Assembly: GCA_000004985.1 (NCBI GenBank)
Contig: GG738905.1
Length of the DNA: 64,000 bases
Origin: Naegleria gruberi
Lineage: Eukaryota
Direction: 5' to 3' (one strand)
The first letter of the stretch is position 1. The number at the start of each line of letters is the position of its first letter. Positions 1,935 to 63,193 of this stretch are shown piece after piece. A program made the translations under genes and the position numbers. Below the pieces are notes generated by a model. The model was not told the origin of the DNA, did not search any database, and saw only the letters and a list, made by a program, of their open reading frames with translations.

Positions 1935-3259
1935 ATGGTCGAATCCGTTGCTCAACAATTAAGCACCCTCTCCATTTCAACAGGTCCTTTCCAATCCGAT
2001 GGCGAACACTACAAGTTACTTAAAAACTATGAACAAATTGATGCCCACGCAAAATCTATTCCATCCAGTGAAACATCTACCCTTACACAATTGGTAACCT
2101 ACCTCACTAAACCATTCTCTAGCATTGAGGAAAAGGCAAGATCCATCTTTGTCTGGATTTGTGAAAATGTTGTCTATGATGCTGAGAGTTTCCTCTCCAA
2201 TCAGCATGCTGTCTATGTTCCAAGTGAACACGACAAGTTCTTTAGTGAAGATGAAAAGAAGATGTACTGCCCAACTTCTCGTCTTACCTTCATTCAAAAG
2301 AAGGGTGTTTGCAGTGGTTACGCAAGACTCTTCAAGAATATGTGTATTCAATCAGGCATTCAAAAGGTATCATGTGTTGTTGGTTTTGCAAAGCTTGTTG
2401 GTTTCAATCCTTTGAATCCAGTAGATATTAAGGAATCAAACCATGAATGGAATGCTGTTGAACTTGAAGACGGATCTCTCAGATTGATTGATGCTTGTTG
2501 GGGAGCTGGTGTTTTGGGCGGATCATCATTCCAAAAGATTTTCACATCAAGATACTTCTTCATGAGCCCAAATGAAATGATTGCTTCCCACTATCCAGAA
2601 GATCCAAAATTGCAATTAATTTCACCACCTGTTAGTCCTGATGATTTCGTTAATAGAGTTCGTATCAGTACTCATGGATTTGCGGATGGAATTAGCACTA
2701 TCACTCATAATGAAGCTTGCATTGTATTGACAGAATCAAATATTGCTGACATTGTCATTCAATGCGATGAGAATGGATTCCAAGTGTTGCTGATTTGTCA
2801 ACTGGTGAAGAACTTAAAGCTGCCTCTGCTCGTGTTGATGGTCACAATATTATTATCAGTGTTTGTGTTCCACAACCTGGTGTTATTTACCAACTTTCCA
2901 TTTTTGCAGGTGTTAGAAAGTGTGAAGAAATGTTGACTTATTTCGTTAGAGTTGAAGGTGGAGCTAATATTGAGGAAGTTTCCTATCCATCTGAATACGG
3001 CTCTTGGAAGACCTATGCTGGTGAATTAATTTCACCAAAAACTGGTAAAATGAAAGTTGGCACAACCTATTCATTCAAGATTCAATTCCCAGCTGATAAA
3101 ATGGTTGCCATGGTAATGATACCACCAAGTGATCAACTTGTTTCTAAGGGAAATGGTTTGTTTGAAGGTGAATACACCCCAACAGCCCCAGGAAAAGTCA
3201 ATCTTGTTGGTGGTTCTGGATCTAGACTTGAAGGACTATTGGCTTTCGATGTTGTATAA
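1935..3259 (+). pseudogene. transglutaminase-like / KY (kyphoscoliosis peptidase)-type cysteine peptidase domain protein, interrupted by an apparent 1-nt frameshift near 2770-2795
   Basis: ORF 1935..2936 carries the transglutaminase-like core (KKGVCSGYARLFKNMCIQSGI ... NHEWNAVEL ... RLIDACWGAG; Cys-His-Asp). The protein clearly continues in another frame as ORF 2795..3259 (EELKAASARVDGHNIIISVCVPQPG...). No GT..AG intron of plausible size bridges the two. Confidence 0.5.
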
Positions 3260-3319: not shown

Positions 3320-4640
3320 GTAAATCATGCAAGAACCAGTTCTTTGAGATTGAGAATATTGTATTGACAGAATCAAGTACGAAATTATGATAATAGTATT
3401 GGAAAGATGAGTTGATATTTGAATAGTAAATTGAAGTTTAGTTAGGGAAATCAGTTTTCTATCCAAGTTTGGAACCTTACATCCAACTTTTTTGAGCTTG
3501 TTCCAAATGAAAAACTATTCGAAATGGTTTAAATTAGCACCATGGATTGAACTATTCCATCCAACAAAAACAAAAAATGAAAGCAAATCTAATCTTTTCA
3601 ATTGCACTTCTACTTTTACTTGCAGTCCTCTCAGTTCAAGCAAATGACAGCTATCAAGCCAAACCTCCAGTCGTCGTTGTTGACAAGTATCACAAGCCAA
3701 AGCATTGTAAGAGAAAATGCTTAAAGCATAAGTGGATTAAGAAGTGTTTAAAACACAAACTCGTTGGTCAAAAGAAAGTCTGTGATCAATATGCCATTGT
3801 CGGAGCTGGTAAATGTCTTAAACATAAGAAATATTCCAAATGTGACAAGTATAGCAAGCCAACAAAGAAGTGTGTCTTGCATGCATACAAGATTGTTGGT
3901 TGTGCCAAGAAGAAGTACTGGAAAGTTTGTGATTCTTATGGAACAAAGAAGATTTGCATCAAGAAGGGTTACAAGAAATACTGTGCCAAACATAAGATTA
4001 TTAACAAGTGTTTCAAGAAGGGTGTTAAGAAGGTCTGTAAGAAATTCAAGAAGGTTCCAATCAAGAAATGTGAAAAGAAGAAGGTTTGCGACAAGTACAC
4101 TGTTGATTCCTACAATAAGAAGGTTTCCAAATGTAGATATGTTAAAAAATGTAAGATTGTTTCATGGGCAAAGAAATGTGCCAAGTATAAGAAGGTTAAA
4201 TATTGTAAGGAAAGAAAATCAGTTAAGAAATGTTGTCTCATTAAGAAGAAATACTGTGCCAAACATAAGACTATCAAGTTCTGTAAGCACAAGAAGATTC
4301 TTTCTAAATGTGTCAAATATCAAAAGAAGAAATATTGTGCCAAGACAATTGTCATTCCTCCAAGATGTATCAAGAAGAAGTATTATAAGAAGTGTTTGAA
4401 ACGTTCAAAGGGAAAGAAGATTTGTAAGAAATTTAAATTAGTTGGTGGAAAGAAGAAGTGTTGCAAGTCAATCAAAAAGAAGATTTGTATCAAGAGAAAG
4501 ACATGTAAGAAGTCATCAAAGCCAATCATCAAACCATCTTTGTAAATGATTATTTTCAAATGTTTCTAATACCTTAATAAAGCCAGAACCATTCTGCAAA
4601 CTCTTATTGCAAACAAATTTCAAGAAATGTTGGAAATCCT
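3320..4640. repeat. left arm of a ~1.3-kb inverted duplication; its partner is at ~41540..42905
   Basis: The reverse complement of 41540..42905 matches this segment. The match covers the gene and ~200 bp of flanks on each side, with a few indels in the flanks. Confidence 0.8.
3577..4545 (+). CDS. secreted, extremely Lys/Cys-rich basic protein (copy 1); the ORF is open from 3547
   Basis: A signal-peptide-like MKANLIFSIALLLLLAVLSVQA is followed by ~310 aa with about 30% Lys and ~38 regularly spaced Cys (KKC/CxK periodicity). A near-identical copy lies inverted at 41629..42600. Confidence 0.6.
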   Translation: MKANLIFSIALLLLLAVLSVQANDSYQAKPPVVVVDKYHKPKHCKRKCLKHKWIKKCLKHKLVGQKKVCDQYAIVGAGKCLKHKKYSKCDKYSKPTKKCVLHAYKIVGCAKKKYWKVCDSYGTKKICIKKGYKKYCAKHKIINKCFKKGVKKVCKKFKKVPIKKCEKKKVCDKYTVDSYNKKVSKCRYVKKCKIVSWAKKCAKYKKVKYCKERKSVKKCCLIKKKYCAKHKTIKFCKHKKILSKCVKYQKKKYCAKTIVIPPRCIKKKYYKKCLKRSKGKKICKKFKLVGGKKKCCKSIKKKICIKRKTCKKSSKPIIKPSL

Positions 4641-4750: not shown

Positions 4751-4822
4751 TCCCGTGTAGTCCAATGGCTAGGATACCTGGCTTTCACCCAGGAGGTCCG
4801 GGTTCAATTCCCGGCATGGGAG
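4751..4822 (+). tRNA. tRNA-Glu (anticodon UUC)
   Basis: TCCCGTGTAGTCCAATGGCTAGGATACCTGGCTTTCACCCAGGAGGTCCGGGTTCAATTCCCGGCATGGGAG folds as a cloverleaf, with a 7-bp acceptor stem, a GGTTCAATTCC T-loop and anticodon TTC. A downstream TTTT run follows. Confidence 0.9.
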
Positions 4823-5324: not shown

Positions 5325-5402
5325 ATTATTATTTTGGACGGGAAGCCTGCCAGGAATATGGCAACAATCCCGCTACAGTCTTTGACTGTATGAACAGTGA
5401 AG
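5325..5402 (+). repeat. conserved ~75-bp element R2, copy A; the second copy is at 41178..41253
   Basis: GACGGGAAGCCTGCCAGGAATATGGCAACAATCCCGCTACAGTCTTTGACTGTATGAAC is ~90% identical between the copies. It contains an ACAGTC-TTT-GACTGT hairpin and resembles the 3' part of 5S rRNA (GGGA..CC.GCC.GGAATA...GCT..AG.CTTT). Both copies sit near tRNA-Glu genes. Confidence 0.5.
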
Positions 5403-5579
5403 GCAACTAATCTATTGATTGTTGGTTCAGTAAGTTATTGTTTAGAAAAGCTTGCTACGTGACCATCTATTTATCACCTTTAAATTTGATCTAATTAGAA
5501 AGAAACTTGTGGTTGATCAATAAACGATAAAATTTCGAATTTGAGTCTTCAAATATTGAAATAGTGTTCAAGATTAAAA

Positions 5580-5664
5580 GACTCAGCACCACAGGTTCCC
5601 AAGTTGTCTCCAACCTCAGTACTGATGTGGCTCGACGATGCTTAACTTCTCAAATCGGACGGGA
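5580..5664 (-). ncRNA. 5S rRNA-related sequence, 5'-truncated copy A (pseudogene or 5S-derived element)
   Basis: On the minus strand, GAAGTTAAGCATCGTCGAGCCACATCAGTACTGAGGTTGGAGACAACTTGGGAACCTGTGGTGCTGAGTCTTTT aligns without gaps to the last 74 nt of eukaryotic 5S rRNA at ~68% identity. This covers the loop E AGTACT, GGAGAC, TGGGAA and GGTGCTG segments and ends in a T-run. The 5' ~35 nt of a real 5S (GCCxACGGCCATACC...) are absent. Confidence 0.55.
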
Positions 5665-5784
5665 TGAGGTGCACTAAATTTATTAATAGAAACATGTCAT
5701 TCCAAAATTGTAAAATGATTAGCAAATCTAGGTTTCGATATTTTGAGGAAGGGGAAGTCTATTGAAACTTTATAATCTTGCTTA

Positions 5785-6483: not shown

Positions 6484-7449
6484 ATGTCAAGCGAAATCAC
6501 AACATCAAATAACAAGAGCAGTATTCTTATTACTGGAGCAACAGGAACAATTGGAAAGCATTTATTGAAGTCACTTTCTGAACAGAAATCATTTGGTCAA
6601 TCAGTGAAGGTTTTGGTGAGGAATATTGAAAAGGCAAAACAAGAACTTGCAAATTATGTAAATAATCTTGATGTAGAATATATTCAAGGTGACTTGAATC
6701 AATTCGAATTAATTCCATCGAGTATTTTTGAAAAGATTGAAAGGGTTTTCGTTTTAACAGTGAGCGAACCAAATCAACCAAAAGTGGAAGAACAATTAAT
6801 TAACAAGATTCTTGAATATTCAAAGGATGATTTGAAACAAGTGATAAGATTATCTGGATTGGGAGCTTCAACAACCATTGAATCGAATAGTTTATTCAGA
6901 TATCATGGCGATTCTGAAGTTGTAATTGGTAATTTACTTTCAAATAAGGCACCAAGCGTTTCCTACGTAATTTTAAGACCTAATCTATTCATGCAAAACT
7001 TCCTTAGAGATGACATTCATTCAATCAAAAACTCATCTCAATTCTTCAAACCAAGAAACGATCATGGAATTCCATATCACATTAGTCATGTTGATGTTAG
7101 AGATATTGCCGATATGGCAGCTCAAATTCTCATTGAAAATCCAAATATTCATGGAGGACAAGTTTACAATATAACTGGACCTCAATCTTTGAATTATGAT
7201 CAAGTAGCTGAGATTATTTCCAAAGTTATTGGCAGACAAATTACTTGGACTAAAATTGATGAAATTGAGTTGGCTAATCAATTAAGCCAATTACCAAAGT
7301 TTTTAGTTATTGGGCTGGTGAGATTATTCCAATTTTACAAATTGAATGGAACCTCTGCTAATGTACATGCAGATTTTGAGATTGTCACTGGAAAGAAACC
7401 AAGATCTTTGGAACAATTCATTCAAGAAAATAAACACCATTTTGAATAA
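6484..7449 (+). CDS. NmrA-like / atypical SDR NAD(P)-binding protein
   Basis: An N-terminal Rossmann motif ILITGATGTIGKHLLKSL sits in a 321-aa protein with an NmrA/isoflavone-reductase-like layout. Confidence 0.55.
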   Translation: MSSEITTSNNKSSILITGATGTIGKHLLKSLSEQKSFGQSVKVLVRNIEKAKQELANYVNNLDVEYIQGDLNQFELIPSSIFEKIERVFVLTVSEPNQPKVEEQLINKILEYSKDDLKQVIRLSGLGASTTIESNSLFRYHGDSEVVIGNLLSNKAPSVSYVILRPNLFMQNFLRDDIHSIKNSSQFFKPRNDHGIPYHISHVDVRDIADMAAQILIENPNIHGGQVYNITGPQSLNYDQVAEIISKVIGRQITWTKIDEIELANQLSQLPKFLVIGLVRLFQFYKLNGTSANVHADFEIVTGKKPRSLEQFIQENKHHFE

Positions 7450-20964: not shown

Positions 20965-21060
20965 AAATTAAAAATGAAAAATCTAGAAAAAAATGGGTAT
21001 TAATCTGAGGTTATTTAAAAAATAGATACACATCTTCAGTGTCTAAATTTTGAGAATCAA
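20965..21060 (+). repeat. short conserved element X, copy A; a direct copy lies at 27890..27975
   Basis: AAAATGAAAAAT...GGTAT(T/C)AATCTGAGGTTATTTAAAAA..ACACATCTT(C/A)AGTGTCTAAATTTTGAGA is ~85% identical between the two loci. Both lie just outside the tRNA-Gly inverted pair. Confidence 0.5.
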
Positions 21061-21139
21061 CTACCATCTAATGGTTACTACATACTATTCAAAAATTGAG
21101 AATGGACATTGAAAGTTGGATGAAAGAAAAAGAAGCGAC

Positions 21140-21210
21140 TGCGTCGACCGGGAATTGAACCCGGGTCACGGCGATGGCAACGCCGTATTCTACCACTAAA
21201 CCATCGACGC
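21140..21210 (-). tRNA. tRNA-Gly (anticodon GCC)
   Basis: The minus strand reads GCGTCGATGGTTTAGTGGTAGAATACGGCGTTGCCATCGCCGTGACCCGGGTTCAATTCCCGGTCGACGCA. It is identical to the copy at 27614..27684, and ~50 bp of 5' flank and ~80 bp of 3' flank are also inverted-repeated. Confidence 0.9.
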
Positions 21211-21344
21211 TTCACATTTATTTAGAATGTAACCTTAATTCGACACTAAGGGGATCGCTTTTATGTATTTATTTATTGAAAATTAAAATCTAAAAGCATA
21301 TGTGAAAAAACTCAAAACCTTATTAATTTCAATATTAAAGTTTT

Positions 21345-27031: not shown

Positions 27032-27613
27032 ATTTGTATTCTTTTAAGATGATTGAGTTAGAGGCATTATTAATTGTAGGCCAATCATCGAGGCAAGTTT
27101 CTTCAATATAGTTGTCAAATGAACACTATGAAGTATTACACTTGAGGTTAAGGCGCATTTCCTTCAACAAAAAAAACAACTCAAAATAAACACTTTAACA
27201 TGAAGTTCTCAATTTTGGCTCTTTTCCTGTACTATTTGTCTGCTCACTCTATTACATTAGAAAAAGACAGTTCTTAACTGATGCTTTGTGCCACATTACG
27301 GCAATTGCTAATACTTAGACCTACTCTGAATATATATTTATTGTGAATTGATTGCATTACAGTTCTATTGTAAAGATCAATGGCACTGTAATCAACAGTC
27401 AAATTTATCATCATTTATGGGTATGGCTGCAATGTGGATTACAATATCAACTAATAAGCAGTTTATATTCTCCATTATGGATATTATATTATATAATATT
27501 TGGATTGGATGATTGAAGGCGCAAAATAGTTTACCTTATCCGAAAAATTAAAGTAACTGGTAACTTCGTATCCCTTAGTGTCGAATTAAGGTTACATTCT
27601 AAATGAATGTGAA

Positions 27614-27684
27614 GCGTCGATGGTTTAGTGGTAGAATACGGCGTTGCCATCGCCGTGACCCGGGTTCAATTCCCGGTCGACGCA
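27614..27684 (+). tRNA. tRNA-Gly (anticodon GCC), inverted partner of 21140..21210
   Basis: It has the same 71-nt sequence as the minus-strand copy, followed by a T-run (TTTTTCTTTC). Confidence 0.9.
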
Positions 27685-28433
27685 GTCGCTTCTTTTTCTT
27701 TCATGGTCCATTCTCAATTTTTGAATATCATGTAGGAACCGTTTGAGGGTAGCTTGTGCCTTAGATGACTGATTGTATGGAGTAAAAAAATTCTTCTCAT
27801 TTTTTTTTGAAATCACAAATATTAGCATATTATGATTCCTTTTTGGACTAATAATTCCATTTACTTTTAATTAAAACCATTTACTCAATAAAATGAAAAA
27901 TTCAGTAAAAAAATAGGTATCAATCTGAGGTTATTTAAAAATCAACCACACATCTTAAGTGTCTAAATTTTGAGATAATTGATCTAAATTGTTTTATCCT
28001 TCCTTTTGTTATGATAGAGAGATGGTCTTACTCGCCTCGCATATTAAGCATGGATTACGAATGTTTGATCCAAAATTCAGATAATCCAATAATTGCATTG
28101 GAATATTTGAAAAATCACGCCGACAAATAATATGACTTGGATAAGGACTTGTTTAATTTGAATTTCGTTATCAAAGCAGTGGATCTTAATTCAGAAGTTT
28201 TTGACGTAGTATAATTTCTATCAAAACGATCCTAGTGTCATGCTGAAAGCAGCTTTTGGAGGTGGTCCTAATGTAAAAGGTTTATGTAAGATTAAGGATT
28301 TCACTCTTATCAAGAAGGTAATGAAAGCGAATCCACTCGCTCTTAAAAATTGTAAAGAAATTCAGATAAATGGGCCCACTAGCTCATAAAAGGTAGAATT
28401 ATATCAACACAAGAATTTTAACATAAATGTGCT

Positions 28434-41177: not shown

Positions 41178-41253
41178 TTAATTATTAGACGGGAAGCCTG
41201 CCAGGAATATGGCGACTGTCCCGCTACAGTCTTTGACTGTATGAACTGTGAGG
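41178..41253 (+). repeat. conserved element R2, copy B
   Basis: The same sequence as 5325..5402, here ~200 bp upstream of the second tRNA-Glu. Confidence 0.5.
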
Positions 41254-41456: not shown

Positions 41457-41528
41457 TCCCGTGTAGTCCAATGGCTAGGATACCTGGCTTTCACCCAGGA
41501 GGTCCGGGTTCAATTCCCGGCATGGGAG
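41457..41528 (+). tRNA. tRNA-Glu (anticodon UUC), second copy
   Basis: Identical to 4751..4822 and on the same strand as that copy, even though the neighbouring Lys/Cys gene is inverted. Confidence 0.9.
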
Positions 41529-41539
41529 GATGTTTTGCC

Positions 41540-42905
41540 TTTTAATACCGACTTGCATCCTTTGTTGAAATTGTTTTGCAATAAGAGTTTGCTTTATTAA
41601 GGTATTATAAACATTTGAAAATAAGTATTTACAAAGATGGTTTGATGATTGGCTTTGATGACTTCTTACATGTCTTTCTCTTGATACAAATCTTCTTCTT
41701 AATTGACTTACAACACTTCTTCTTTCCACCAACTAATTTAAATTTCTTACAAATCTTCTTTCCCTTTGAACGTTTCAAGCACTTCTTATAATACTTCTTC
41801 TTGATACATCTTGGAGGAATGACAATTGTCTTGGCACAATACTTCTTCTTTTGATATTTGACACATTTAGAAAGAGTCTTCTTGTGCTTACAGAACTTGA
41901 TAATCTTATGTTTGGCACAGAAGAATTTCTTCTTAATGAGACAACATTTCTTAACTGATTTTCTTTCCTTACAATATTTAACCTTCTTATACTTGGCACA
42001 TTTCTTTGCCCATGAAACAATCTTACACTTTTTAACATATCTACATTTGGAAACCTTCTTATTGTAGGAATCAACAGTGTACTTGTCGCAAACCTTCTTC
42101 TTTTCACATTTTTTGATTGGAACCTTCTTGAATTTCTTACAGACCTTCTTAACACCCTTCTTGAAACACTTGTTAATAATCTTATGTTTGGCACAGTATT
42201 TCTTGTAACCCTTCTTGATGCAAATCTTCTTAGTTCCATAAGAATCACAAACTTTCCAATACTTCTTCTTGGCACAACCAACAATCTTGTATGCATGCAA
42301 GACGCACTTCTTTGTTGGCTTGCTATACTTGTCACATTTGGAATATTTCTTATGTTTGAGACATTTACCAGCACCGACAATGGCATATTGATCACAGACC
42401 TTCTTTTGACCAACGAGCTTGTGTTTTAAACACTTCTTAATCCACTTGTGCTTTAAGCATTTTCTCTTACAAATTCTTGGCTTGTGATACTTGTCAACAA
42501 CGACGACTGGAGGTTTGGCTTGATAGCTGTCACTTGCTTGAACTGAGAGGACTGCAAGTAAAAGTAGAAGTGCAATTGAAAAGATTAGATTTGCTTTCAT
42601 TTTTTGTTTTTGTTGGATGGAATAGTTCAATACATGGTGCTAATTTAAACCATTTCGAATAGTTTTTCATTTGGAACAAGCTCAAAAAAGTTGGATGTAA
42701 GGTTCCAAATTTGGATAGAAAACTGATTTCCCTAACCAAACTTCAATTTACTATTCAAATAATATCAACTCATCTTTCCAAAACTATTATCATAATCTCA
42801 AGGACTTGTTCTTCCATGATTTACGACCTTGTACATTTTTTAACTAAGGTATTATAGTAATTTCGAATAATTTGATTATTTATTTGATTCTGTCAATACA
42901 ATGCT
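41540..42905. repeat. right arm of the ~1.3-kb inverted duplication; partner of 3320..4640
   Basis: The reverse complement matches the left arm. The gene copies differ by a handful of substitutions and one 3-nt indel. Confidence 0.8.
41629..42600 (-). CDS. secreted Lys/Cys-rich basic protein (copy 2)
   Basis: About 98% identical to copy 1. The differences are N->S, KHCK->RICK, a KKYCAKHKTIKF->KKFFCAKHKIIKF indel, and I->T. Confidence 0.6.
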   Translation of the reverse strand: MKANLIFSIALLLLLAVLSVQASDSYQAKPPVVVVDKYHKPRICKRKCLKHKWIKKCLKHKLVGQKKVCDQYAIVGAGKCLKHKKYSKCDKYSKPTKKCVLHAYKIVGCAKKKYWKVCDSYGTKKICIKKGYKKYCAKHKIINKCFKKGVKKVCKKFKKVPIKKCEKKKVCDKYTVDSYNKKVSKCRYVKKCKIVSWAKKCAKYKKVKYCKERKSVKKCCLIKKKFFCAKHKIIKFCKHKKTLSKCVKYQKKKYCAKTIVIPPRCIKKKYYKKCLKRSKGKKICKKFKLVGGKKKCCKSIKKKICIKRKTCKKSSKPIIKPSL

Positions 42906-45262: not shown

Positions 45263-48200
45263 TTGACAAGTTACGGAATGATAAAAAAATACTCATCAAA
45301 TGCACTCTATTTCGCGAATGAAACTTTTAAAAACGATAGAGATGCAATATTAACAGCAGTAAAAGAAAATGAGTTTGTACTCCAATATGCTAATGAAACA
45401 TTGAAGAATGATAGAGAATTTATTTTGGAAGCTGTAAAGATAAATGGAAAAGTACTCCAATACGCGAAGGAAATATTTAAAAGTGATAGGGAAATTGTGT
45501 TGGAAGCTGTTAAAGATGATGGATTAGCACTTGAATATGCCAATGAAATTTTAAAACATGATAGAGAAATTGGATTGGAGGCCGTAAAAGAAAATGCCGA
45601 AGCATTTCTTTATGTAAATAACACATTGAAAAAAGATAGGGGACTTGTATTGAAAGTTGTTAAACAAAATGGAATATTACTTCAATATGCAAATGAATTA
45701 TTGAAAAAGGATAGAGAAATTGTGTTGGAAGCTGTTAAAGATGATGGATTAGCACTTGAATATGCCAATGAAACATTAAAACAAGATAGAGAAATATCTT
45801 TAGAGGCTTCAAAACAAGAATTTTATAGAGGAATTATTTTAGAATCTAATATAAGATATACACCGAATCTTTTTTACGCTTTTAATAATTATATCGAATT
45901 TAAAAATTTGAGAAACGATAGAAAATTTATATTAGAAGCTGTAAAACAAAATGGATTAGCTCTTGAATATGCTAATGAAATAATGAAAAGAGATAGAGAA
46001 ATTGTATTGAAAGCTATTCAAGAAAATGGATTAGCTCTTGAATATGCAAACGAGACATTGAAAAAAGATAGAGAAATTGTGTTGAAAGCTGTAAAACAAA
46101 ATGGATTAGCACTTGAATATGTTAATGAAATAATGAAAAAAGATAGAGAAATTGTATTGAAATCTGTTAAGAAAAATGGAAAGCCGTTTCAATATGCAAA
46201 AGATACTTTGAAAAATGATAGAAAATTTATTTTGGAAGCTGTTCAACACAATAGAGATATATTTTTATATGTAAATGCAATATTGAAAATGGACAGAGGG
46301 TTTATTTTGCAAGTAATCAAAAAAAATAGAGATGTGCTTGAGTGTGCCGATACGAGTTCAGTTTATTACGACACAACCTTAAGTTATTTACTTTGCAATG
46401 ATACAGTTCTGGTTTATTTACTTTCTAAACATAATCCAGAATTATCCAGAAAGTTTTCACCACAATTAACTCAGATTATTGATGAATCCAACAATCTAAA
46501 CGCCAAACTATCCAAAGATGTGATTGAACTATACTCAAAACAGCTCAACTCTGAAAATGATTTGTATTATTGTATTGAATTACCAAATGTAGAGCCAGAC
46601 AAATCGTTAACCCCGCATTGGTTCTCTTTCAAACCAACCTATTCAGTAGAATTTATTGAAAAATTGGTTATATTTCAAATATTGAAAAAAGTACAAGAAA
46701 TGGAACCATCAAATGATATTTTCAACGGTGAAACTACTAACTATAATTTCTTTTGTTTCAAGTTGGATAAACTTCTGGAAGAAACTTTAATTCAACCAAA
46801 AACTGTCAAAGATTTGAGGAATACTGTTGAGAGTATTTCATCTAAATTCGATACATCATTTTACTCCAAAAAGGAAATCAAGTGCATCAGGTATTTTTTC
46901 ATAACATGGACAGAAAGTGACAAATCTTTTACTGACTACAGGAGGATATTGTCAAGATATAACGAAAAACATGGTGATCTGTCAAAAATATTCAAAGCTC
47001 TCAATAGATACTACAAATATTTCAATAAGAATTACGACTTTATTTCAATATTAGGAAACGGTGCAGAAGGGGCTGTTTTCAAAGTATTACACAGAGAAAG
47101 TAGAACGTTGATGGCTATCAAATTCAAATATGAAGTAGAAGATAGCGAAGAATCAACAAATGAAATTATTAACTTATTGAAACGAACAGATATGTGTGGA
47201 AAGATAAAATGTTTTGATTGTGGAATGATTGAAAGACATTTATATTCAGTAATGGAATTGGGAGAAGAATCTCTATCAGATTATATTCAGGCAAATATTG
47301 AAGTTTATAGAAATTCATCCATGATGACTAAAGAGAAATTAATTGAAATCCTGCGAATATTTATGCAAATATTAGAATCTGTTCAGTCCATCCATGATCA
47401 CAACATTTTACATGGAGATTTAGATCCGCAAAATATTGTCAAAGTTGGAGATCAATACAAACTAATTGATTTTGAAACTTCCAAAGTAATCAAGACAGGA
47501 AATTCAATTACAATTGCTCGTGGAAAGTTTGCATACATGTCTCCTGAAGTTTCACATGATAATTACACTGATGACATGTTTAAAAGAAATAATGATTCTA
47601 AATTAGCTCATAACATTGGAAATATTACAATCTCATGTGATATTTTTTCATTGGGATGTATTTTATTGAAATTATTAACACATTGTCCATTACAATTAGA
47701 TGAGCACTTTGTTAATGATTCTGATTTATCAAAATATAAGGATAATTTCATTTATTTCACAACCTATGGAAAGTATTTCTATACGGTTGTAACAACAAGT
47801 GAAGGGGAAACCAAATTACACTATGCCATCGAACAACTGATCAACAAATCAATTGATACAAATTATGGAGTGAACAATATATTAATCAGATGTATTATTA
47901 CAATGATTCAAAGAGATTCTTCCAAAAGATTGTTTTGTTATTCATACAAAACAACTCTTGAGAATGTAATTAAATTTTTGAATGGAGAAATTGAAATATC
48001 AAACATTGAGATGGACATCAAGCAGTATAAGGAAATAAAATCCTTGATGAGTTACTCTCGACTTTTGGAAGAAATCAACAAAGTGAATCAGAGAAATGAT
48101 TTCTTGAATGAAAAAATTAAACATCTTGAAGATGAAAACAACAAATTAAATCAGGAAATCAACAAATTACATCAGAGAAATGACATATTGATGGAAAATA

Positions 48201-48280
48201 ACAAATTGAATCAGGAAAATACAGAATTGCAAGAGAAAATTAAAATATTAGAGGAACAAATTAGAAAACTCCACTTTTAA
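45263..48280 (+). CDS. DUF4116-type repeat protein fused to an atypical protein kinase domain and a C-terminal coiled coil
   Basis: Roughly 14 tandem repeats of ~30 aa of the form LxYAxExLKxDREIVLEAVKxNGxAL. A kinase domain follows: GNGAEGAVFKV...AIKF, a catalytic loop HGDLDPQNIVKV, DFE in place of DFG, and MSPE. A heptad-rich tail KLNQEINKLHQRND ends the protein. Confidence 0.55.
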   Translation: MTSYGMIKKYSSNALYFANETFKNDRDAILTAVKENEFVLQYANETLKNDREFILEAVKINGKVLQYAKEIFKSDREIVLEAVKDDGLALEYANEILKHDREIGLEAVKENAEAFLYVNNTLKKDRGLVLKVVKQNGILLQYANELLKKDREIVLEAVKDDGLALEYANETLKQDREISLEASKQEFYRGIILESNIRYTPNLFYAFNNYIEFKNLRNDRKFILEAVKQNGLALEYANEIMKRDREIVLKAIQENGLALEYANETLKKDREIVLKAVKQNGLALEYVNEIMKKDREIVLKSVKKNGKPFQYAKDTLKNDRKFILEAVQHNRDIFLYVNAILKMDRGFILQVIKKNRDVLECADTSSVYYDTTLSYLLCNDTVLVYLLSKHNPELSRKFSPQLTQIIDESNNLNAKLSKDVIELYSKQLNSENDLYYCIELPNVEPDKSLTPHWFSFKPTYSVEFIEKLVIFQILKKVQEMEPSNDIFNGETTNYNFFCFKLDKLLEETLIQPKTVKDLRNTVESISSKFDTSFYSKKEIKCIRYFFITWTESDKSFTDYRRILSRYNEKHGDLSKIFKALNRYYKYFNKNYDFISILGNGAEGAVFKVLHRESRTLMAIKFKYEVEDSEESTNEIINLLKRTDMCGKIKCFDCGMIERHLYSVMELGEESLSDYIQANIEVYRNSSMMTKEKLIEILRIFMQILESVQSIHDHNILHGDLDPQNIVKVGDQYKLIDFETSKVIKTGNSITIARGKFAYMSPEVSHDNYTDDMFKRNNDSKLAHNIGNITISCDIFSLGCILLKLLTHCPLQLDEHFVNDSDLSKYKDNFIYFTTYGKYFYTVVTTSEGETKLHYAIEQLINKSIDTNYGVNNILIRCIITMIQRDSSKRLFCYSYKTTLENVIKFLNGEIEISNIEMDIKQYKEIKSLMSYSRLLEEINKVNQRNDFLNEKIKHLEDENNKLNQEINKLHQRNDILMENNKLNQENTELQEKIKILEEQIRKLHF

Positions 48281-48388
48281 TCATCAATAAATAGTTCCTT
48301 TTAAGTTTTGTATCTATTTACAACAAAAGTTGCTATGTATTTTCATCCCGATAACAACATCAATATACATTGATATCAGTTATTGTAT

Positions 48389-48461
48389 TCCCCCTTAGCT
48401 CAGTCGGTAGAGCGTCAGACTGTTAATCTGCAGGTCGGTGGTTCGAGCCCACCAGGGGGAG
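48389..48461 (+). tRNA. tRNA-Asn (anticodon GUU)
   Basis: TCCCCCTTAGCTCAGTCGGTAGAGCGTCAGACTGTTAATCTGCAGGTCGGTGGTTCGAGCCCACCAGGGGGAG, followed by T5. Confidence 0.85.
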
Positions 48462-48505
48462 ATATCTTTTTCGTTTTCAAATATGAGACAGAACTATTTT
48501 AAAAA

Positions 48506-48585
48506 GACTACAGCACCACAGGTTCCCAAGTTGTCTCCAACCTCAGTACTGATGTGGCTCGACGATGCTTAACTTCTAAATCGGG
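48506..48585 (-). ncRNA. 5S rRNA-related sequence, 5'-truncated copy B
   Basis: Nearly identical to 5580..5664 over ~85 nt. Homology to copy A and to 5S begins at the same point (CCCGATTT.AGAAGTTAAGCA). It lies 45 bp downstream of tRNA-Asn on the opposite strand. Confidence 0.55.
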
Positions 48586-60564: not shown

Positions 60565-63193
60565 TTACTTCTTTCTTGAACTCTTCATCTTGATACTAGT
60601 GAAAGCCATATCAGTAACAGTCATGGCAGTAATAACATTGTCAGCTCTCAAAGCTCCATCAGCAGAAACTGAAACAATTGAACTTTCAACATCAGTTGAC
60701 TTGACACTGAAAGTACCACTGACAACAGCAGTGCCATTAACAACAATACCTCCAATAGATGTGAAATCACCTCCTTGAACAATGATAGCAGCATTGGAGT
60801 GATTCAAATGAACAGTTCCATTAATTGTCAAGTTACCAGTGATGAGCAATGCATGATTCAATGTCAAGTTACCATTAACATGGGTTTCGCCATTGACAGT
60901 CAAAATGCTTCCAACTGTTGAGTTCAGGGTACCATTGACAGTTAAATTACCATTAATCAAGGTGGAGCATGGTAATGAAATGTTACCAATCATTTGGAGA
61001 GAACCATTGCTGGCAATGGATGAGTTATCCATTTCGAATGAACCATTTTGAGCCAAAGAACCATTCAATTCAAGAGTTTCATTACCCAATAAACTGCCAT
61101 TAATGAGCATGGAGCCGTTGACAGATAAGACACCCATTGACATGGATTTGAAAGTACCATTGACTGAGATAGTTCCATTAATTGAGGTATTGGATGGAAG
61201 AGACATGTTACCATCAAAGTTCATAGAACCATTAAGGTGAACAGTTTCGTTATCTTGGAAGAATGAACCATTATGAACCAAGGAACCATTCATATTGAAA
61301 TCAGTTTCATTTCCATCGAAAGAACCATTAATGAGCATGGAACCGTTGATAGACAATTGACCATCCATAGTGGAATTGATAGAACCATTAATTTGAAGAG
61401 TACCATTGATAGAATCCAATGAAGGGAGAGTCATGTTTCCTTCCATAGCCAAAGAACCATTTGAACTCATTGAAGAATTATCATGATAGAAAGAACCATT
61501 GTTTGCCAAAGTACCGTTCAATTCCAAAGAGTTGGTATAATTGCTAGAGAATGAACCATTAATGAGCATTGAACCATTAATAGACAATGTTCTGAAAGCA
61601 GTTGATCTTAAAGTACCATTGACTGAGATAGTTCCATTAATTGAGTTGTTAGATGGGAGAGTCATGTTACCGTCAATGGTAATGGAACCATTTGAACTCA
61701 TTGAAGAATTATCATGGACGAATGAACCATTGTTGGCCAAAGTACCGTTCAATTCCAATGAATTAGTTTGATTAGTGGAGAAACTGCCATTAATAAGCAT
61801 GGATCCATTGACAGACAAGACACCCATTGACATGGATTTGAAAGTACCATTCACTGAGATAGTTCCATTAATTGAGGTATTGGATGGAAGAGACATGTTA
61901 CCATCAAAGTTCATAGAACCATTAAGGTGGACAGTTTCGTTATCTTGGAAGAATGAACCATTATGAACCAAGGAACCATTCATATTGAAATCAGTTTCGT
62001 TTCCATTGAAAGAACCGTTCATAACCATCGAACCATTGATGCTCAAATCACCACTGATTGAGGAGTTAACAGTACCATTAACTTGAAGAGTACCATTGAA
62101 TTCGTCCATGGAAGGAAGAGTCAAGTTACCTTGAATGGTCAAAGAACCATTAGTGTTCAAAGAATTGTTAGAATAGACGAAACTGCCGTTATGACCCAAT
62201 GTACCATTCAATTCGAAAGCATTAACTTCATCAGCATCGAATGAACCATTAATAAAGAGAGATCCATTAGAGAACCAAGTTGAGTTGGAAATCATTAAGG
62301 AACCATTTGAAGCAATGCTACCATTAACTTGCATCAATCCGTGATCAATTGAAGCGTTGATGAATGATGAACCATTGACAATCAACGAGTCATTAATCAT
62401 GGCAACAATTCCACTAGCATTGAAAACACCTTCAATAGTCAAATTACCAACTGTCATGGAACCATCGGTGTGAGCAATACTTCCATTAACATGCAAACTA
62501 TGAGTTGAGTTGAGTGTGAAATTACCATTAGTGACCAAGGTACCATTCAAGATGGAACTATTAGATGAGGTAGTAGTGTAAAAACCCTTCATGGTGGCAT
62601 TTCCATTACTATCAGAGAAGATGGTTGTTTCACTTGCGTTTTGTGGAGCAACTGGGAGAACAATTGGAGCAACTGGAGTAACAGGTGTAACAACAGGAGG
62701 AACGACTGGCTTAACTGGTGGAATAATTGGTTTAGGATTGATTGGAGCAGTATCATTGCACAACTTTAAGTGATCTCTGCAAATCAAGGTCTTGATATTC
62801 TTATTCTTATTCTTGCCTTGTTGCATAGTTTTCAAGGCATTATCAAGAGTGGAACAGAAATTATGTCTGTAATGATTACAAAGTGAAAGAACAGATCCAG
62901 TTTTAACTGTTATATATGCAATAACATGAAAATGAACGAAGCATTGTAGATGTATTAAGGGAATTAAGTGAGTATTTGCAAACACATGTGATAGTTATTA
63001 TATAATATGTAACGAGTTCAATGTTCATTCAAAAAGAAATACCTTACTTACTCTTATCGGTAGCAACCATATCAAAGCTAGTTTTACAGAATGTGCATGG
63101 ATTAGCTGAGAAACCATAGACAGTACAAGCGATGGCGCTCAACAAGACCACCAATGTGATAATCAATTGCTTCTTTTGCATTTTTTCTTTCAT
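60565..63193 (-). CDS. secreted Asn-rich repeat glycoprotein (NGS/NGT sequon-rich), 2 exons
   Basis: Exon 1 (63193..63052) encodes MKEKMQKKQLIITLVVLLSAIACTVYGFSANPCTFCKTSFDMVATDK, a signal peptide. A 145-bp intron (GTAAGT..AACAG) follows. Exon 2 encodes a Cys-containing head, a Pro/Val linker (PVKPVVPPVVTPVTPVAPIVLP) and then ~650 aa of periodic N-G-S/T units (>80 sequons). Two stretches of ~75 aa are near-identical: NETDFNMNGSLVHNGSFFQDNETVHLNGSMNFDGNMSLPSNTSINGTISVNGTFKSMSMGVLSVNGSMLINGS. Confidence 0.55.

Follow-up and report, generated by a model that had tools for sequence, protein, structure and literature searches.

The window analysed here, a 64,000-nucleotide stretch of contig GG738905.1 from Naegleria gruberi (assembly GCA_000004985.1), is eukaryotic nuclear DNA with a GC content of ~32%, eight dispersed tRNA genes, and one 5S rRNA gene. 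At positions 3577–4545, it carries an intronless and functional gene for a lysine-rich protein whose cysteine residues form a regular lattice (copy 1; its product is referred to as the window protein). A second copy on the opposite strand, likewise intronless and functional, lies at positions 41629–42600 (copy 2). The features of both copies are as follows:

3369–3576 (+): upstream region, presumably promoter and 5' untranslated region; common to copy 2 and part of the duplicated block
3577–4545 (+): copy 1, open reading frame (ORF) from ATG start to TAA stop, 322 amino acids (aa)
3577–3642 (+): part encoding the putative signal peptide, aa 1–22, MKANLIFSIALLLLLAVLSVQA; from sequence reading, with cleavage according to the (–3,–1) rule
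3643–4542 (+): predicted mature polycationic polypeptide with the Cys lattice, 300 aa; from composition, Cys spacing, and purifying selection in frame
4543–4545 (+): stop codon TAA
4576–4581 (+): AATAAA hexamer, possible polyadenylation signal, 31 nt past the stop codon; kept in copy 2
41593–41598 (–): AATAAA hexamer 3' of copy 2
41629–42600 (–): copy 2, intact gene of 323 aa plus stop codon, with one extra codon; from tblastn, blastn of the window against itself, and alignment
42601–42812 (–): upstream region of copy 2, homologous to 3369–3576

The N-terminus of the window protein (MKANLIFSIALLLLLAVLSVQA, followed by ND) combines a basic n-region with a hydrophobic core of 17–18 residues and V-Q-A at positions –3 to –1, and reads as a signal peptide that is canonical by the (–3,–1) rule. 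Past this segment, no further hydrophobic segment, KDEL-type ending, or glycosylphosphatidylinositol-anchor-like tail was seen in the protein. The original prediction of a signal peptide followed by a lattice of lysine and cysteine is thus borne out by the N-terminus and the composition. Its estimate of about 30% Lys recognized a Lys-rich protein but was slightly low, as Lys accounts for 33.5% of the precursor (108 of 322 residues) and 35.7% of the mature chain (107 of 300); instead of the ~38 Cys it announced, there are 32, which make up 10.7% of the mature chain and are absent from the signal peptide. Basic residues of the mature chain (113 Lys and Arg, of which only 6 are Arg) far outnumber the 9 acidic ones, resulting in a net charge of ~ +104 (+105 for the whole precursor) and an isoelectric point (pI) of 10.14. 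We know of few natural secreted proteins with a comparably high lysine content. Aromatic residues are represented by 20 Tyr (all in the mature chain), 3 Trp, and 5 Phe. The mature chain begins with a [VI]-D-[ST]-Y motif, which reappears in the middle of the protein (DSY at aa 24, 119, and 177).

Duplication, selection, and codon usage

Comparison of the window with itself places the two copies in an inverted duplicated block (3369–4583 / 42812–41591), which is 96.7% identical over 1.2 kb and spans ~208 bp of upstream sequence (with 15 differences between the copies), the whole ORF, and ~38 bp of downstream sequence including the AATAAA hexamer. Copy 2 had been overlooked in the original prediction. 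The encoded proteins are 97.8% identical. Between the coding sequences, there are 16 synonymous and 7 non-synonymous substitutions as well as a single in-frame indel of 3 nt; with non-synonymous sites ~4.4 times more numerous than synonymous sites, the ratio of the respective substitution rates (dN/dS) amounts to 0.09 (Nei–Gojobori). A third copy or haplotype of the gene is contained in the gene model NAEGRDRAFT_76199 (P0002) of N. gruberi, located on a 39.8-kb scaffold and almost certainly chimeric. This model joins an unrelated N-terminus (SAM/PB1) to a Lys/Cys-rich C-terminal part, whose ~137 aa match copy 2 except at four positions.

Purifying selection extends to an orthologue from the environment or another strain (L002; positions 289–1264 of a 1.3-kb contig from run SRR32051688 in Logan) that is 72% identical and retains 30 of the 32 Cys of the window protein, with a dN/dS of 0.14 at a dS of ~1.0. 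L002 has an in-frame TGA at the codon that matches Gly108 of the window protein (KIN-stop-CS vs. KIVGCA), and the 198 codons past the TGA are still under purifying selection. The TGA may have arisen very recently as a nonsense mutation, may stem from an error in the assembly, or may be read through; a reading as selenocysteine was also considered, and no obvious ATGA motif resembling a selenocysteine insertion sequence was found in the short 3' flank of L002.

The codon choice of the gene is non-random. AAG accounts for 70–74% of its Lys codons, whereas the share is 39% when 19 other long ORFs from the window are considered, and AAA-AAA is used for only 1 of the 36 pairs of adjacent Lys residues. 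The gene has five times fewer runs of at least five A than expected when its AAA and AAG codons are permuted (2 vs. 10.3; P ~1e-4). Because poly(A) tracts stall ribosomes, the scarcity of such runs is the pattern expected of a heavily translated gene rich in poly-Lys, and their avoidance would fit a selection for smooth translation. It is highly likely that the locus represents a real gene, encoding a secreted protein of an undescribed family.

No protein identical to copy 1 or copy 2 is present in a collection of 5.8 billion proteins, where the best matches to the window ORF are 73–87% identical; therefore, both copies appear to be unannotated in the reference protein set of N. gruberi. The neighbouring NmrA-like ORF (6484–7446) is 100% identical to a predicted protein of N. 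gruberi. The Lys/Cys locus illustrates two practical blind spots: the intact copies appear to be missing from the protein set, with the third copy caught in a chimeric model, and trypsin-based proteomics should be nearly blind to the product, because a Lys at every second or third residue would result in tryptic peptides too short for standard shotgun proteomics.

The cysteine lattice and its conservation in Naegleria

The regularity of the lattice is evident from the 31 gaps between consecutive Cys of the window protein, which are 9 residues in 14 cases, 10 in four, 11 in two, 12 in two, and 8 in one, besides a few irregular gaps. Gaps of 9–10 residues occur 18 times among the 31, whereas 20,000 composition-preserving shuffles of the mature sequence yielded 2.6 such gaps on average and never more than 10. 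Gap lengths vary with a coefficient of 0.33 (shuffle mean 0.90, minimum 0.52), and the autocorrelation of Cys is maximal at lag 9. The original prediction of Cys recurring every 8–10 residues therefore holds well beyond chance, and so does the proposed K-K-C-x-K context: Lys is found at position –2 of 24 Cys, at –1 of 14, at +2 of 21, and at +4 of 18 (out of 32 each). Positions –1, +1, and +3 are occupied by a mixture of Lys, hydrophobic, and aromatic residues, and this alternation would suit beta strands. The protein contains two CC pairs but lacks CxC. An origin of the periodicity from tandem repeats in the DNA was rejected, as Tandem Repeats Finder detected none behind it; the regularity resides in the protein. 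BLASTP comparison of the protein with itself revealed no significant internal repeat at E ≤ 1e-3 and only weak internal matches (E 0.005).

As anticipated in the original prediction, the protein has no recognizable domain. A search of Pfam-A with hmmscan yielded no family at E ≤ 10, six relatives gave no credible Pfam match at E ≤ 1, and neither the single protein nor the family profile matched any sequence in the PDB. The mean confidence score (predicted local distance difference test, pLDDT) of AlphaFold2 was 40 with an alignment of four sequences and 51 with 11 sequences (predicted template modelling score 0.22). The 11-sequence model consists of beta-hairpins only, and pLDDT values of 70–80 are reached only in residues 245–314.

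A search with the single sequence recovered three relatives, an exhaustive HMMER profile search of 1.84 billion representatives recovered 17, and another profile search contributed three more. All family members stem from Naegleria or from environmental sequences (soil and other assemblies). The named members, which include the paralogues that the original prediction proposed to look for, are:

NAEGRDRAFT_67458 (P0003), N. gruberi, 301 aa
NAEGRDRAFT_66117 (P0020), N. gruberi, 475 aa
NAEGRDRAFT_57793 (P0024), N. gruberi, 707 aa
FDP41_004030 (P0008), N. fowleri, 379 aa
C9374_009239 (P0007), N. lovaniensis, 430 aa

P0003 has an E-value of 1.8e-55 for the single-sequence query and 2.1e-138 for the profile; the profile E-values of the N. 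fowleri and N. lovaniensis members are 4e-20 and 6e-22. All named members are annotated solely as predicted, hypothetical, or uncharacterized, in agreement with the initial impression that the family had not been described. A hydrophobic, signal-like segment is found at the N-terminus of all full-length members (best 12-residue Kyte–Doolittle mean 2.6–3.4). The 11 long members scanned share a median Cys gap of 9, so that the spacing is conserved among the paralogues, and the named members possess ~30 or more Cys with a modal gap of 9, together with D-[ST]-Y motifs. Cys accounts for ~8–11% of the residues across all hits, with lower values in chimeric or frameshifted models, and the pI of the true relatives ranges from 9.2 to 10.7. 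Signal peptide and Cys lattice are maintained at 26–49% sequence identity and in three species of Naegleria. The family is undescribed and restricted to this lineage; its ordinary members are already present in databases as hypothetical proteins, and the extreme members appear to be unannotated.

The comparison with P0003, which is 46% identical to the window protein, indicates that the family is defined by the Cys lattice in the first place and by positive charge in the second. While 28 of the 31 aligned Cys are kept, the other positions are only 37% identical; among 105 aligned Lys, 79 remain Lys or Arg, including 19 that are Arg. The window type has the highest charge (33.5% Lys and net +105, compared with 12–25% Lys in the named paralogues) and lacks the inserts rich in Pro and Tyr and the C-terminal tandem repeats of its paralogues, as well as the extra N-terminal Cys-rich domain of the forms of 707–742 aa. 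The C-terminal repeats, in which the [VI]-D-[ST]-Y motif is expanded, comprise three to four copies of IDSYKP in FDP41_004030 (P0008) and four copies of KVDTYKPPK in P0022. The long-form paralogues retain the Cys lattice at a Lys content of ~13%. Judging from these sequences, the charge is tunable across the family, with the window type at the extreme.

The loss of individual Cys provides a clue to their connectivity. Cys44 and Cys296 of the window protein are both missing in L002 and P0003, and this joint loss, which leaves the number of Cys even (32 or 30), hints that the two residues may pair with each other. The mature chains of P0007 and P0020 contain an odd number of Cys (37), so that one residue would stay free for intermolecular links.

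P0013 (539 aa) consists of ~25 tandem copies of the 11-residue CDRHKLIGAGH, followed by ~270 non-repetitive residues. Its match to the family profile lies in the CDQYAIVGAGKC segment (E 3.6e-8) and probably reflects a resemblance at the level of motifs and not homology.

Searches of viral and metagenomic sequences and of the literature were negative. A scan of IMG/VR with the family alignment revealed no viral relatives that were confirmed by tblastn. With this result and the GC content of the gene region, which is similar to that of the remaining window, an insertion derived from a virus was rejected. There were also no relatives in a metagenome scan of the Joint Genome Institute (JGI) data. 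The literature searched did not mention the accessions or locus tags of the family, and nothing relevant to the gene was found in the literature on cyst walls, lysine-rich proteins, and secretomes of Naegleria.

Potential functions of the secreted polycation

To our knowledge, there is hardly any molecular information on the secretions of Naegleria that serve the cyst wall, surface adhesion, or the handling of bacterial prey. One species of the genus, N. fowleri, is a lethal pathogen with cysts that withstand disinfection. A family that among named organisms occurs only in this genus and has a conserved, unusual architecture provides a concrete candidate for such secreted material, and the member encoded by N. 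fowleri (FDP41_004030) might be used as a marker or target. The extreme Lys content may also be of interest to designers of polycationic or adhesive materials. The present finding concerns a well-characterized orphan and not a mechanism.

The preferred interpretation is that of an extracellular, disulfide-laddered polycationic cement of a cyst wall or matrix, a tentative assignment to which we give a probability of roughly one in three. The product would enter the endoplasmic reticulum, where the signal peptide would be cut after Ala22 and the Cys would pair into as many as 16 disulfides, stapling short beta-hairpins together to an elongated ladder that resists proteases. Disulfide bonding, as proposed in the original prediction, would be expected because the protein takes the secretory route and its Cys are conserved and even in number. 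Once oxidized, the protein would be exported and, with a net charge near +104, would have to associate with a polyanionic partner. As a bulk structural cement, it might attach to acidic components of the cyst wall or of an extracellular or adhesive matrix and cross-link them by means of its charge, its disulfides, and possibly the Tyr residues of its repeatedly occurring [VI]-D-[ST]-Y-(K)-P motifs, which in close paralogues make up tandem Tyr-Lys-Pro repeats. A structural role is favoured because the gene occurs in near-identical form at least three times (twice in the window and once as the C-terminus of P0002) with translation-optimized codons, because AlphaFold2 predicts only beta-hairpins, because selection is purifying and not diversifying, because the family comprises multiple paralogues, some with an odd number of Cys, and because the Tyr-Lys-Pro tandem tails of paralogues recall cross-linked wall and adhesive proteins.

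Comparable systems exist among other cyst-forming protists. The COWPs of Cryptosporidium, the spore-coat proteins of Dictyostelium, and the CWPs of Giardia are multi-paralogue families that form disulfide-cross-linked walls; like the window protein, they are secreted and contain many regularly spaced Cys, and CWP2 of Giardia has a strongly basic tail region. By contrast, they have other repeat lengths and are absent from the 17 profile hits, and we know of none that approaches 36% Lys. A likeness in composition and period also exists between the tails of the paralogues (KVDTYKPPK in P0022 and IDSYKP in P0008) and the proline-rich wall proteins of plants (PPVYK), extensins, and mussel foot protein-1 (AKPSYPPTYK), which are likewise secreted, basic, and rich in Lys and Tyr. 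Unlike these Tyr-Lys-Pro proteins, the window protein has only isolated DSY and KPP motifs and consists in bulk of the Cys lattice, and no homology to them is detectable.

Several points weigh against a structural cement. The cyst walls of Naegleria are usually discussed as neutral polysaccharide, with no obvious ligand for a polycation. The window protein itself carries the DSY and KP motifs singly and without tandem repeats, and the genes around both copies are unrelated, with varied Pfam domains that give no hint at a function. The AlphaFold2 model is too weak to assign a fold, a beta-ladder, or a disulfide pattern. No data on expression, localization, or stage and no proteomic record were found in the literature and supplements searched, and a 2023 pangenome paper (PMC9928731) describes stage-specific expression data as very limited for Naegleria. 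The cationic, disulfide-stapled, and amphipathic beta features would suit an antimicrobial role equally well.

The main rival explanation is a polycation that acts on bacteria or handles prey, which we consider rather unlikely. Located in the phagosome or released into the medium, the protein might bind lipopolysaccharide, teichoic acids, or bacterial membranes and agglutinate or permeabilize the prey in the manner of a chain of tachyplesin- or protegrin-like hairpins. Naegleria is a bacterivore and makes secreted antimicrobial naegleriapores from multi-unit precursors. The signal peptide, the net charge of ~ +104, the 32 Cys, the alternating beta-strand pattern with one cationic face around Cys, and a predicted structure composed entirely of beta-hairpins are all consistent with such a function, and the same local alternation of cationic and hydrophobic residues around Cys is found in the beta-hairpins of tachyplesin and protegrin. 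These peptides, however, measure 17–18 residues with two disulfides and share no sequence similarity with the window protein, whose mature chain of 300 aa is far longer than known beta-hairpin peptides, continuous, and without spacers or signs of regular processing units. Membership among the defensins, thionins, or beta-hairpin antimicrobial peptides was rejected, given the continuous 300 aa in comparison to a class that remains under ~60 aa, and the lack of matches to Pfam models of defensins, thionins, or other antimicrobial families and to PDB sequences. Also the strong purifying selection (dN/dS 0.09–0.14) contrasts with the fast evolution of many immune effectors, and the Tyr-Lys-Pro tandem tails of the paralogues are more typical of structural proteins.

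Even less probable is a function as a counter-ion or packaging protein that would condense a polyanion in the secretory or lysosomal system or outside of the cell, e.g., polyphosphate, sulfated or acidic glycans, or extracellular nucleic acid, in analogy to midkine or pleiotrophin with heparin and protamine with DNA. The extreme charge density (35.7% Lys), the basic character of the whole family, and the maintenance of charge over the exact residue (the 19 of 105 aligned Lys replaced by Arg in P0003) agree with this explanation, but nothing indicates a specific polyanion, and the retention of the lattice at 13% Lys in the long-form paralogues identifies the lattice, and not the charge, as the defining feature of the family. 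Midkine and pleiotrophin are likewise secreted, Lys-rich, all-beta, disulfide-stabilized binders of polyanions. They differ in being animal-specific and short (~120 aa), with two thrombospondin-repeat-like domains that together hold 10 Cys, and membership in this family was rejected because PTN_MK_N and PTN_MK_C had no match in Pfam-A (E ≤ 10); similarity to heparin-binding domains of this type or to nucleic-acid-binding domains was absent.

Other known protein classes were also rejected. Metallothioneins and keratin-associated high-sulfur proteins share the high content of Cys and Lys and the low complexity, but metallothioneins are small, cytosolic proteins without aromatic residues and with 20–30% Cys in CxC, CC, and CxxC clusters; the window protein, by contrast, has 322 aa, a signal peptide, 10% Cys at even spacing, aromatic residues, and no Pfam match. 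An assignment to histone H1 or protamines is contradicted by the signal peptide, the dominance of Lys over only 6 Arg, and the lack of a match to the linker-histone model of Pfam.

The weakest explanation, a chance low-complexity ORF or a decaying pseudogene in AT-rich DNA, would account for the lack of identical proteins among 5.8 billion although the window belongs to the N. gruberi reference, for the in-frame TGA in L002, and for the failure to find transcript evidence in the literature searched, but is very improbable: the excess of synonymous over non-synonymous changes (16 vs. 7, despite the ~4.4-fold greater number of non-synonymous sites), the sole indel in frame, the conservation of signal peptide and Cys lattice at 26–49% identity in three Naegleria species, and a Cys spacing beyond the reach of shuffling all speak against it, and dN/dS of the copies, the L002 orthologue, codon bias, and the avoidance of A-runs together rule out a chance ORF.

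A bolder proposal, which we regard as speculative, is that the Cys lattice constitutes a new fold, a long disulfide-laddered beta-ribbon that would tolerate any charge from moderate to +105 and form a Naegleria-specific extracellular material, such as a cement of the cyst wall or pore plug or a giant, multivalent bactericidal polycation. If this were true, gene callers would have skipped the hyper-lysine members and trypsin would cut them into peptides too small for proteomics, so that they escaped notice.

Genomic surroundings of the two copies

The two copies are embedded in different neighbourhoods. Copy 1 is accompanied by genes for a Ras/Roc GTPase, a transglutaminase-like protein, and proteins with Polyketide_cyc2 and NmrA domains, and copy 2 by genes for a short-chain dehydrogenase, a pseudouridine synthase, and a DUF4116 kinase; the paralogue of N. 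fowleri is flanked by unrelated genes. The transglutaminase-like gene (Transglut_core/DUF553; 1935–3259, +), which has an apparent intron at ~2800–2940, lies directly upstream of copy 1. As a partner that cross-links the Lys residues of the window protein, it was set aside because it is located outside of the duplicated block, lacks a signal peptide, and is absent beside copy 2; a functional link between the two genes is unlikely.

Genes for tRNA-Glu(UUC) are located 100–200 bp past the 3' end of each copy (4751–4822, +, and 41457–41528, +), outside of the contiguous duplicated block, in the same direction as copy 1 and convergent with copy 2. Their placement beside both copies suggests that breakpoints of the duplication or of a rearrangement coincide with tRNA genes. 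A further element of ~65–70 nt (5337–5400, +, and 41188–41251, +; 89% identical) with an exact 26-nt core, GACGGGAAGCCTGCCAGGAATATGGC, occurs near both gene copies and their tRNA-Glu genes. The predicted fold of this element comprises two hairpins (–27.8 kcal/mol; z = –4.1 relative to shuffles), and it has no match in Rfam; it is a candidate for a small non-coding RNA or a repeat fragment.

Other duplications in the window also involve tRNA or 5S rRNA genes. The dispersed 5S rRNA gene (5578–5699, –) lies 1 kb downstream of copy 1, and a partial 5S copy of 83 bp (48502–48584; 97.6% identical) is found beside a tRNA-Asn gene (48388–48462). An inverted pair of tRNA-Gly(GCC) genes with their flanks (21120–21252 / 27572–27704) is 99% identical over 133 bp and has additional flanks of 87% similarity (20971–21055 / 27890–27975), representing another tRNA-associated inverted duplication. 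Internal repetition is present in two further ORFs of the window: one of 1005 aa (45263–48280, +) that encodes eight DUF4116 repeats and a protein kinase domain, with internal DNA repeats at 45321–46298, and another at 60565–62985 (–) with repeats at 61035–62151.

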